From: a virus
Lineage: Duplodnaviria > Heunggongvirae > Uroviricota > Caudoviricetes
Length of the DNA stretch: 64,000 nucleotides
Strand: one strand, 5' to 3'
Virus record (IMG/VR): IMGVR_UViG_3300045988_152430
Below, one piece after another: positions 21,012 to 22,750 of this stretch. The stretch's first letter is position 1. Each line of letters opens with the position of its first letter. The notes under the pieces were generated by a model. The model did no database searches and was not told the DNA's origin. It saw only the letters and a list, made by a program, of their open reading frames with translations. The position numbers were made by a program, and so were the translations under genes.

Positions 21012-21159
21012 CCTCTCACTCCATTATTTAACGAATAAAAAAGCTGCGGTGCCGGGTGCCTCCCGGTGTCCTTTGGCTGGTTATCCACCGTGGACGGGGA
21101 AACAAGGAGAAATGAATGGACTGATATAACCATTTCCCCGCGTGCGCTTAGCCGCATTC

Positions 21160-21940
21160 ACCGCAACGGAAAGAGCATTCTTGGTGGACCTGTAGATTGG
21201 GATATGAACCCGTTACAGGAGAATGCTCTTACCTGTTACGTGCTCCGTTTCGTGGAGCTAACGGCGGGTGATCGGGCCGCACCAGGCTGGACTTATTTCA
21301 GCGTTATGCTCATGCCAGAGAATCAAACTGTGATGGTCGGTGCTGAACTCCGACACAGGGTTGTAGCAAGCCCCGCAAAGCGCGCACTACTGTAGTTGCG
21401 GCACATCAGCCTGTGCATTCACCACAATGTTGAGAACACTGGTTGTCACGCTGCAACGCAACATTTATTCGTAGATTGGGATATGACCCCGTTACGCCAG
21501 TGTTCTCAACGTTGTAGTGCCGGTTACGGTTCCGGCCAGGCCTCTTCCTCAACGGGGTGTTCTCCATACGGACTACCGTTTATTGGTCGTTCCTGCGGTT
21601 TATGTTGTGAAGCCAGATGCTTATCTTCTGGTTGCTTCAAAGAGCTGCACTTCATCACAACGGTAAGAGCACTCGATGCATTTAAGCCAAGCCCCATAAG
21701 GGAGAATGCCCTTACCTGTTGTGTTGTGATGACCGGTGCTGATCTCCGGCTTGCGGTTATTTCAGACTCTCACGGGCGTTTAATTGCCCCGCCGAACAGC
21801 TCTTTTCCGCAATAGCTGCAATGTCTTTCGCGCATCAGCCTGCGCATTCATCACAACGGTAAGGGTACTTCGTAGGGATTCGAACCCTCTGCCAAGCTCG
21901 GCGATCTCCGACGTCGCAAAATACCCTTACCTGTTGTGCT
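21160..21940 (-). repeat. Family of long-stem hairpins sharing CACAACGGTAAGGG / CCCTTACCTGTTGTG arms, ORF-free operon leader
   Basis: At least four hairpins (around 21170-21235, 21422-21515, 21655-21726, 21850-21938) with 11-18 bp stems and 40-55 nt loops; one loop carries a T-arm-like GGGTTCGAATCCC. Confidence 0.5.
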
Positions 21941-22015
21941 GGTGCCGATTAACGGACTCGAACCGCTGACATCCTGCTTACAAGGCAGGCGCTCTACCAA
22001 CTGAGCTAAACCGGC
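21940..22015 (-). tRNA. tRNA-Thr (anticodon UGU)
   Basis: 76-nt cloverleaf GCCGGTTTAGCTCAGTTGGTAGAGC...CTTGTAA...GGTTCGAGTCC...CCA. Confidence 0.85.
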
Positions 22016-22017
22016 AT

Positions 22018-22093
22018 TGGCGATGGTGGATGGATTTGAACCATCGACCCGTTGATTAACAGTCAACCGCTCTAACCGCTGAGCTACACCATC
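22018..22093 (-). tRNA. tRNA-Asn (anticodon GUU)
   Basis: 76-nt cloverleaf GATGGTGTAGCTCAGCGGTTAGAGC...CTGTTAA...GGTTCAAATCC...CCA, 2 nt from tRNA-Thr. Confidence 0.85.
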
Positions 22094-22750
22094 ACTTGCC
22101 GGGTACGTCTCCGGCGAGGGCTTCCACCTCCGTATGCTTTTCGGCGCACCGCGCCCTGGCTGCAATTCGGTAACAGGGGATGCATAACCCTGGCTTCCAG
22201 CGTGATTAGCGCCTTCAGCATGACGGGATATACCCGTAAATTCGTGGAACTGTACCCAAAGTGCTGTTAAGCACCGCTGTTACGCTGAAAAGAAGACGCA
22301 ACAGGAAAGGACGCTGACCAACAGATGGCCCCTTCTCGTTCATCTGGTTAATCACACCAGCGCCCTTACCTGTTGTGCCTCCCCGTTCCCTAATACACAG
22401 ACGGGGACACTCTGCGGTCGATTTTTTGACGGGGGACGACTCATACCCCGTGGCGTCTGGCTTCTTAGGCCGCTACCATCATCAGATCATCGTTTGCATT
22501 TACTTTAATGGTCAGTTTCTAAACCGCCGCAAAGTCGCTAACCATGACGAAAACCCTGAAAAAAACGCCCACCCGAAGATGGGCAAACTGGAAGCTCGTA
22601 ACGCACTTCGGTGTTGCCACTTAGGCGTATGGTCAACCTGGCAACTCGGCGTCATGAGGGGGAAGGAGTCACTACCCCGCCATACTTGCCGCCGCGCCTG
22701 TCGCGGCTAACAGCTAAATCGCTCTATAAATCACGATTCATTGAGGCGAT

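Follow-up and report, generated by a model that had tools for sequence, protein, structure and literature searches.

Stalked hairpins with tRNA-like tips in the ban operon leader of a P1-like phage: members of a widespread prophage RNA family and probable RNase III processing stems

Five long hairpins in the untranslated leader RNA (~1.7 kb) of the ban operon of a P1-like phage are structured non-coding RNAs of a very common, unnamed prophage family that is not P1-specific. On balance we favour the view that they are modules of the ban leader whose stalks are cut by RNase III and whose tips resemble parts of tRNA. The DNA is a 64,000-nucleotide (nt) stretch of a Caudoviricetes record in IMG/VR (IMGVR_UViG_3300045988_152430; all of it is called the window here). 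Positions 20900-22800 are >98% identical to the Punavirus genomes RCS47, vB_EcoM-813R1 and P1, and judged by sequence identity the window is a P1-like phage with RCS47 as its nearest relative. In P1, the homologous stretch carries on one strand the C1-controlled promoter Pban, a 'dicF-like region', trnA (Asn), trnT (Thr), tciABC, trnI and ban; the equivalent strand in the window is the minus strand.

Five hairpins on the strand of the ban operon

An earlier note, made from the letters of this DNA alone, had described at least four hairpins built from a shared pair of arms. Repeat search and folding located five, all on the minus strand between 21157 and 22381, the fifth (H5) being one upstream of the tRNA genes that the note had missed. 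Each was compared with 200 dinucleotide shuffles, and for all five 0/200 folded as well. The hairpins are listed with their z-scores and their scores against model R1, which is introduced below.

21157..21244, minus strand: H1, stalk hairpin; z -5.58; R1 61.9 bits, P1-type copy in the seed
21418..21521, minus strand: H2, stalk hairpin with three-way junction; z -7.65; R1 54.2 bits, D6 copy in the seed
21652..21727, minus strand: H3, stalk hairpin with reduced tip; z -5.80; R1 19.5 bits, not in the seed
21847..21943, minus strand: H4, stalk hairpin with tRNA-elbow-like tip; z -5.53; R1 16.8 bits, not in the seed
22293..22381, minus strand: H5, stalk hairpin; z -6.69; R1 17.2 bits, not in the seed

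All five fold more stably as minus-strand than as plus-strand RNA, the difference being 4.5 to 16 kcal/mol, an excess of the sort that G-U pairs produce on a transcribed strand. Each stem comprises 19-26 pairs and a single bulge or mismatch ~6-10 pairs above the base, in keeping with the roughly two turns (20 bp or more) of near-uninterrupted double-stranded RNA that RNase III stems need. The stalk consensus is CAYAAC(A)GGUAAGRGCA paired with UGCYCUUNCCGUUGUG. The arm pair that had been proposed for the whole set, CACAACGGTAAGGG with CCCTTACCTGTTGTG, describes H3, H4 and the right arm of H5, and H1 is a close variant; in H2 the layout is the same but the arms have diverged (CAACGTTGAGAAC / GTTCTCAACATTG). 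H5 has the arms CACAACAGGUAAGGGCGCUG / CAGCGUCCUUUCCUGUUGCG with a U-U mismatch in the centre, and its copy in phage D6 shows one compensatory C-G to U-A change with the central mismatch kept.

Two further details of the earlier note stand. H4 starts 1-2 nt past the CCA end of tRNA-Thr and contains the T-arm-like AGGGUUCGAAUCCCU, and the loops of H1 and H2 have a repeat in common (25 nt, 96% identity; repeat D6 of the repeat search). A hairpin directly follows the CCA end of tRNA-Thr in the window, P1, D6, P7 and Ro157c2YLVW, and in P7 and Ro157c2YLVW it is an H3-type hairpin. Arm and model searches of the 64-kb window found arms of the H1-H5 type only at 21.1-22.4 kb; a loose fuzzy-pattern scan for the arms was dominated by noise. 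We rejected a dispersed repeat or miniature inverted-repeat transposable element (REP- or ERIC-like) as the source of the copies, which are confined to this interval in the window and lie in equivalent leaders in other phages.

Covariation and spread of the family

We aligned 21 diverse members, including P1-type H1 and D6 H2 (alignment A1), and built model R1 from A1. Pair statistics were taken from A1, leaving out alignments A2 and A3, which mix sense and antisense matches. In A1, 92.4% of cells are paired, against 39-51% with the 3' partner slid by 1-3 columns; 18 of the 31 pairs vary on both sides, and 0/500 shuffles attain the observed values. Three G-C pairs and the loop are invariant. 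The core ACGGGYUCAUAWCCCAAUC is nearly invariant and the stalk, P2 and P3 helices covary. The observation of the earlier note is confirmed: five hairpins fold stably, and the pairs of the family are kept by compensatory change.

Model R1 recovers all five hairpins of the window, three of which (H3, H4 and H5) were not in its seed. H3 is found in the whole window at E 0.004 and H5 with filters off at E 6e-4; searched over 2 kb with filters off, the three give E 1e-4 to 8e-4. Lambdoid members score ~100 bits on the sense strand against ~33 bits on the antisense strand. H4 scores equally on both strands (16.8 bits), so that R1 shows its membership and leaves its orientation to other evidence; we assigned its strand from the fold energies and its place in the tRNA transcript.

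An IMG/VR scan for GGGYTCATAWCCCAATC returned at least 120 contigs, and in nearly all the matches listed the motif forms the tip of a hairpin that has a three-way junction and a ~20-bp stalk. R1 has a sense-strand match in ~95 IMG/VR contigs. Annotated hosts of the lambdoid type include SfV, SfII, SfIV, ST64B, cdtI, mEp460 and Stx2c phages, and the hairpin lies there between cI and the first early-left gene, immediately past an intrinsic terminator. Searched with a 120-nt query in 5,426 complete E. coli genomes, one subtype has matches in 2,492 (~46%), and RefSeq annotates there either nothing or merely a 'hypothetical protein'. In a scan of one genome per species, full-length members were found in ~17 Enterobacterales genera, including Escherichia, Shigella, Citrobacter, Enterobacter, Kosakonia, Leclercia, Phytobacter, Mixta, Erwinia, Pantoea and Yersinia. 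The family has no Rfam entry: at permissive thresholds, Rfam returned the tRNAs, a sub-threshold STnc100 and chance microRNA-type matches on the hairpins. String searches of the literature, aimed at the core motif and at transcript data of P1, gave nothing relevant.

The Qin dicF locus and proposed cleavage by RNase III

The leader contains further domains, which we list here with its start.

22746..22788, no strand: inverted repeats I2 and I11, where P1 has its C1-controlled bivalent operator and Pban
22553..22654, minus strand: dicF-like region (P1 annotation 'dicF-like region'; terminator scan)
21726..21858, minus strand: inter-hairpin unit with a short closing stem UGUGAUGA / UCAUCACA, starting with GUGAAUGCGCAGGCUGAUGCGC
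21030..21165, minus strand: STnc100-like closed domain with outer stem UGCGGUG / CACCGCA, ending in GCUUUUUUAUU and a U-tract

P1 annotates Obanab/P1ban at the place homologous to the inverted repeats (L001 4504-4533 maps to about 22749-22778 of the window), which by this homology are the start of the minus-strand ban operon transcript. The domains follow in the order DicF-like unit with terminator, H5, tRNA-Asn, tRNA-Thr, H4, inter-hairpin unit, H3, H2, H1, STnc100-like unit with terminator, open reading frames (ORFs), CAU tRNA and ban.

The strongest indication of what the stalks do comes from Qin, a prophage in E. coli K-12, where R1 matches between ydfC and dicF (2670-2761 of our Qin sequence L132; 21.7 bits, E 1e-4). 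The site folds as a stalk, with its 5' strand at 2673-2696 and its 3' strand at 2735-2758. In the dicBF operon of Qin, Faubladier et al. reportedly described in 1990 a site upstream of dicF that RNase III processes. The dicF-dicB spacer that follows is closed by an 18-bp stem (z -5.5). A 2023 preprint reports that a 190-nt DicF species is no longer seen when RNase III is missing, and that its 5' end results from an RNase III cut (10.1101/2023.04.14.536235); the 3' end of the 72-nt DicF is also made by RNase III (PMC5069750). Counting from the annotated dicF (2883-2935), the 190-nt length puts the 5' end at ~2746, within the 3' strand of the stalk, and the same arithmetic puts the 3' end of the 72-nt species at ~2954, within the 18-bp closing stem. 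Because the Qin stalk coincides, by this arithmetic, with the RNase III-made 5' end of the 190-nt DicF, the best explanation of the window hairpins is that they are RNase III processing stems. The earlier note had offered tRNA-derived pseudo-elements, RNase processing signals or small RNAs; the ~20 bp of double-stranded RNA and the Qin stem at an end that depends on RNase III make the second the best supported of the three. By analogy with Qin, the stems are probably RNase III cutting sites.

The surroundings of the two loci also agree. Like the window, Qin has a bulged ~20-bp stalk matched by R1, with CAUAAC...GUUGUGG ends, in a long untranslated stretch of a repressor-controlled early operon, and next to it a DicF-type small RNA (sRNA) with terminator and an STnc100-like unit. 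In the window, the dicF-like region consists of a hairpin, a short sRNA-like body and an intrinsic terminator (22566-22585). The hairpin, GUUGCCAGGUUGACCAUACGCCUAAGUGGCAAC, is homologous to the one immediately upstream of DicF in Qin (L132 2820-2859; ~36/40 nt match by eye, with a C-G to U-A compensatory change). Homology is limited to this preceding hairpin: the body differs from DicF, and the Rfam DicF model (RF00039) has no match at E up to 10 within 19500-23500. The body, ~150 nt downstream of Pban, is a possible sRNA with a different seed.

At the other end of the leader, the STnc100 model (RF02076) matches 21045-21165 with 37.8 bits, under its gathering score of 47, over model positions 31-147 of 206. 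The domain folds with z -3.19, is homologous by eye to the Qin dicF-dicB spacer (L132 2946-3094) and has a homologue at the equivalent spot in D6 and P7. The STnc100/PasD model starts with the GUGAAUGCG... motif that follows every hairpin arm, and it covers the unit adjoining H1, not the hairpins themselves. Qin differs from the window in that its hairpin is single, has a degenerate tip and is not accompanied by tRNA genes, where the window has five hairpins amid two tRNAs and three conserved tRNA-like tips. Published work on Qin (Ragunathan et al. 2023 preprint) maps an RNase III cut, and its accessible part does not describe a hairpin family.

Phage RNase III processing stems are a known kind, to which the window family adds a tRNA-mimic component. 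In the T7 early region, the lambda N leader, sib and the rrn operons, cleavage of long imperfect double-stranded RNA separates units (tRNAs among them in rrn). These stems have no sequence in common with the window family and enclose either nothing or whole rRNAs. The T4 tRNA cluster yields species 1 and 2 (rnaC and rnaD), stable small structured RNAs with tRNA-like features that are co-processed with tRNAs. Both these and the window hairpins are co-transcribed with phage tRNAs, but processing in T4 depends on RNase P and RNase E and not on long RNase III stems.

We propose that the leader would be transcribed on the minus strand from a C1-controlled promoter, each module being a conserved ~20-bp stalk with a central bulge or mismatch and a variable tip that it closes. 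RNase III cutting of the stalks would split the polycistronic transcript, trim or define the 3' side of tRNA-Thr, set the tips free as small hairpin RNAs, and part the DicF-like unit, the STnc100-like unit and the downstream mRNA from one another; the freed tips would then bind a tRNA-recognising partner. Folds, strand, covariation, membership of the family and the Qin homology are results of the analysis; RNase III cleavage in P1, the stability of the products and the partners of the tips are what we infer here. If the proposal is true, early phage leaders are strings of closed RNA domains (tRNAs, sRNAs and tRNA-like tips) parted by RNase III-cleavable stems, the family is tied to the classic, poorly understood dicF locus, and a structured RNA that ~46% of complete E. 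coli genomes carry unannotated, K-12 and O157 among them, gains a name and a model.

Several observations weigh against this proposal. Cleavage in P1 is deduced from a single homologous site, Qin, where end positions are derived from fragment lengths and are accurate to about +/-5 nt. The R1 scores of H3, H4 and H5 are low (17-20 bits) and come mostly from the stalk. The fold of the inter-hairpin unit is no better than chance (z -1.23; 32/200 shuffles equal or better). Some P1-like genomes are without H3, H4 or both tRNAs, and single modules are therefore dispensable; in SJ46 and one IMG/VR contig (L076), the H2 5' arm is fused to the H1 3' arm, which destroys that stalk. In a CRISPR interference screen of P1, plating did not require trnT, plp, upl, tciA-C, trnI or ban (PMC10695390).

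A transcript that starts at Pban has at least two intrinsic terminators to pass before ban (22566-22585 and ~21030-21060, both in the leader). This would suit hairpins that act as antitermination signals, of the HK022 put or boxA/nut kind, for terminator read-through and escape from Rho in the 1.7 kb RNA, as would the place of the lambdoid hairpin in the early-left leader beside a terminator; the 3' arm UGCUCUU also resembles the boxA consensus. We nevertheless regard antitermination as very unlikely. H2, H4, H5 and the Pantoea member do not keep the boxA-like string, the window has no enrichment of boxA-like matches (27 against 22 expected), and the lambdoid hairpin is downstream, not upstream, of the terminator next to it. 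R1 has no match in the HK022 early-left region (L130), in which putL was not located. Two related ideas were dropped by eye: the ORF after the lambdoid hairpin begins MASERSTDVQ and is not arginine-rich, as an N-like protein would be, and no match to the loop complement was seen in the start regions downstream, as pairing of the loop with start codons would require.

Tips that resemble parts of tRNA

The P2 helix of H1 ends in GGG-UUCAUAU-CCC-AAUC, an anticodon-loop-like tip with CAU, and that of H2 in GGG-GUCAUAU-CCC-AAUC; read on the minus strand, the loop is ACGGGUUCAUAUCCCAAUC. GGG/CCC and UCAUA are retained in both hairpins; the first loop position is U or G and the seventh is U. Among relatives, this CAU-loop core is carried by many stalks. 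The U at position 2 and A at position 6 are anticodon-like. A T-loop reading was rejected, as loop position 5 is U, not A, and the anticodon-loop reading fits better. Three consecutive G-C pairs are a mark of initiator tRNA, and the corresponding segment of the E. coli initiator tRNA is UCGGGCUCAUAACCCGA. The lambdoid core CGGGCUCAUAACCC equals the anticodon arm of E. coli tRNAfMet over 14 nt, including the three G-C pairs and the CUCAUAA loop.

The tip of H4 combines a D-arm-like hairpin, GCGA-CGUCGGAGA-UCGC with GG in the loop, and a perfect T-arm, AGGG-UUCGAAU-CCCU, that abuts the 3' strand of the stalk. This tip is kept on three different stalks whose changes compensate; GGGUA/UACCC, for example, becomes GAGCA/UGCUC in BUCT554.

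H4 stalk, P1-like: GGGUAUUUUG / CGAAGUACCC
H4 stalk, Enterobacter phage BUCT554: GAGCAUUGCG / CGCAGUGCUC
H4 stalk, IMG/VR L246: GGCGAGGAUACUGUG / CGCAGCGUCCUCACC

H4 is similar to YrlA, a bacterial Y RNA-like RNA, and to the tRNA-like domain of transfer-messenger RNA in its long stem and D-loop/T-loop elbow without an anticodon arm. It differs from them in that its stem is closed, without a free acceptor end, and that no Ro/Rsr gene lies near it; the Rfam YrlA match in the region is on real tRNAs, not on H4, and far under threshold. H3 has a tetraloop stem in place of the anticodon-like module, and no tRNA-like tip was recognisable in H3 or H5.

Of the idea that the hairpins are tRNA-derived, the resemblance to single arms stands (the T-arm and D-arm-like hairpin of H4, GGG-UCAUA-CCC in H1 and H2), and individual motifs such as the T-loop UUCGAAU with G-C closure and the anticodon loop with U33 and purine 37 are present; neither ARAGORN nor Rfam calls a tRNA on them. 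ARAGORN, a check suggested with the idea, returned three true tRNAs and none of the hairpins. The Rfam tRNA model matched the true tRNAs only, and the best match of its clan on H4 was tRNA-Sec at 14.6 bits (E 10).

22018..22093, minus strand: tRNA-Asn (GUU); ARAGORN; Rfam tRNA 74.5 bits
21940..22015, minus strand: tRNA-Thr (UGU); ARAGORN; Rfam tRNA 72.9 bits
19864-19939, minus strand: CAU tRNA; ARAGORN

The T-arm and CAU-loop pieces would also be expected if the hairpins were decaying, functionless remnants of duplicated tRNA genes and their flanks, retained solely through recent shared ancestry and with arms left over from tandem duplication, and it fits this that modules are freely gained and lost by arm recombination, that one recombinant breaks a stalk and that the region is non-essential. 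We consider this rather improbable. Stalks are maintained by compensatory changes across very different phages, 46% of complete E. coli genomes carry the family, as do many genera, and a homologue, the one in Qin, is at a mapped processing site. Tip motifs are far more conserved than the stems, and conservation of tips on covarying stems argues against neutral decay.

Since conservation of the tips does not depend on the stalks and their form imitates parts of tRNA, the tips probably bind some tRNA-recognising factor. A bolder version, which we put forward as unlikely but worth stating, is that presenting tRNA-fragment decoys is what the hairpins mainly do: H1, H2 and their relatives would be initiator-tRNA anticodon mimics and H4 an elbow mimic, a toolkit on RNase III-cleavable stalks that titrates or misleads a tRNA-binding factor, with the stalk as scaffold. 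Its targets would be universally conserved ones, tentatively the 30S P site or initiation factor 3, methionyl-tRNA synthetase, or an anticodon nuclease of a defence or toxin-antitoxin system such as VapC, a toxin that cleaves tRNAfMet. Such a role is compatible with RNase III processing. It would account for a core that stays nearly invariant while stalk, P2 and P3 covary and for the 14-nt identity of CGGGCUCAUAACCC with the tRNAfMet anticodon arm; the elements also adjoin phage tRNA genes and can be spared in the laboratory, which is usual for accessory or anti-defence functions. On the other side, only 3 bp of the 5-bp anticodon stem are retained, H3 and H5 have no tRNA-like tip, and the G at loop position 1 of H2 in the window may shrink the loop. 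If decoys they are, nearly half of sequenced E. coli carry an RNA-based anti-defence or translation-control device, and the initiator-tRNA-like loop is a concrete, readily testable lead to it.

The core ACGGGCUCAUAWCCCAAUC also occurs on unrelated, well-paired helices in a few metagenome-assembled genomes (Acidobacteriaceae, Saccharibacteria and Bdellovibrio-like; L152 ~2553-2622, L153 and L146), which would favour decoys. These distant matches are few and uncertain: ~70 chance occurrences of the 19-mer are expected in the genome collection, and only matches that fold correctly carry weight. The core motif may thus be far older than the enterobacterial stalk, or have a much wider distribution, with chance or contamination as alternatives.

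A tRNA-like unit of another kind occurs in a lambdoid leader (L091 1800-1925, plus strand). It scores 40 bits with the Rfam tRNA model. Its acceptor, D and T arms are normal, but a 68-nt insert replaces the anticodon arm and CCA is missing; the unit lies between stalk hairpins, one of which has two T-arm-like loops.

The plus-strand reading frames upl and plp

The earlier note had seen no credible ORF in this region. Plus-strand ORFs do exist, corresponding to upl and plp of P1 and RCS47, but they are not gene-like.

21066..21815, plus strand: ORFs of 109 aa and 139 aa, including the P1 upl equivalent (21204-21395); the 139-aa ORF is RCS47 plp

The upl and plp annotations of P1 and RCS47 span H1-H3, and P1 plp overlaps tRNA-Thr. 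Across 15 P1-like sequences, the upl-like ORF shows 3 synonymous and 9 non-synonymous substitutions, and plp shows 10 and 14, including two stop-creating variants; together 13 of 36 changes are synonymous, about the neutral expectation. Relatives break the frames by a 13-nt deletion (Ro157c2YLVW) and by 1-nt indels. The C-termini of Plp are wholly different between P1 and the window because of recombination between hairpin arms. Neither ORF has a Pfam match, a promoter scan of the region found no promoter-like site on either strand, and the predicted upl promoters of P1 sit within tciA, which is not present in the window. The upl ATG is the complement of the CAU in the H1 loop. That the plus strand codes for Upl and Plp, with the hairpins incidental, is the reading of the P1 annotation; the frames are open and annotated in P1, RCS47 and JL22, and they are not annotated in P7 and D6. 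Given the non-coding-like substitutions, stop variants, indels, swapped C-terminus and lack of Pfam match or promoter-like site, we give it hardly any credence. From the sequence comparison, Upl and Plp do not appear to be genes and the P1 annotations look spurious. If so, two long-standing P1 gene annotations give way to RNA elements.

Module exchange and variation of the leader

P1-like genomes differ from one another with breakpoints in the shared arms or the shared loop, so the repeats also serve as recombination joints.

21655-21672, 21708-21725, 21851-21866, 21923-21938 and 22362-22377: arm breakpoints (P1, P7, SJ46, D6 and IMG/VR contigs)

P1 is without 21667-21840 and P7 without 21737-21920, and one IMG/VR contig (L087) is without 21723-22362, having lost both tRNAs by arm-to-arm recombination. 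If this reading is right, the shared stem sequence is a joint that shuffles modules between phages. The inter-hairpin unit, not in P1 itself, is 97-98.5% identical to a segment of mEp460-like lambdoid early-left leaders. Lambdoid leaders such as L091 and a locus of BUCT554 share one string of modules, in which stalk hairpins are joined by tRNA-like units, a GUGAAUGCG... unit and a DicF-type terminator.

In BUCT554 (L131 2200-2940), this string comprises a promoter-like site, stalk hairpins, an H4-type element, the GUGAAUGCG unit and a DicF-like terminator (22.3 bits), and it occupies an 800-nt gap between structural genes of a Uetakevirus; its position among structural genes indicates that the island moves between unrelated phage types. 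mEp460 (L003 ~2780-2880, minus strand) and the podovirus-type BUCT554 (L131 ~2330-2440, plus strand) have a further conserved leader module in common, …GGCACAUGYGUCGUWAGCGGUC…GGUAGCCGGAAUGUGCAAGUCA…, which lies upstream of the stalk hairpins.

Downstream of the hairpins, the tci genes of P1 are not in the window, where the earlier note had not found them either, and are replaced as in RCS47 by two other ORFs.

20775-21011, minus strand: predicted membrane ORF, 78 aa; ORF list
19967-20794, minus strand: SPFH/Band-7 protein, 275 aa; Pfam E 1e-30

Ro157c2YLVW has the same replacement of tciA/B/C as RCS47 and the window; RCS47 annotates the SPFH/Band-7 protein as a 'putative serine protease'. In D6 (L005) and P7 (L006), ARAGORN found an additional class II tRNA-Ser(UGA)-like gene (1638-1724, minus strand), directly followed by a stalk hairpin with a ~75-nt tip, and in Ro157c2YLVW a tRNA-Tyr lies between tRNA-Asn and tRNA-Thr. 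The tRNA content of the leader is therefore variable among P1-like phages.

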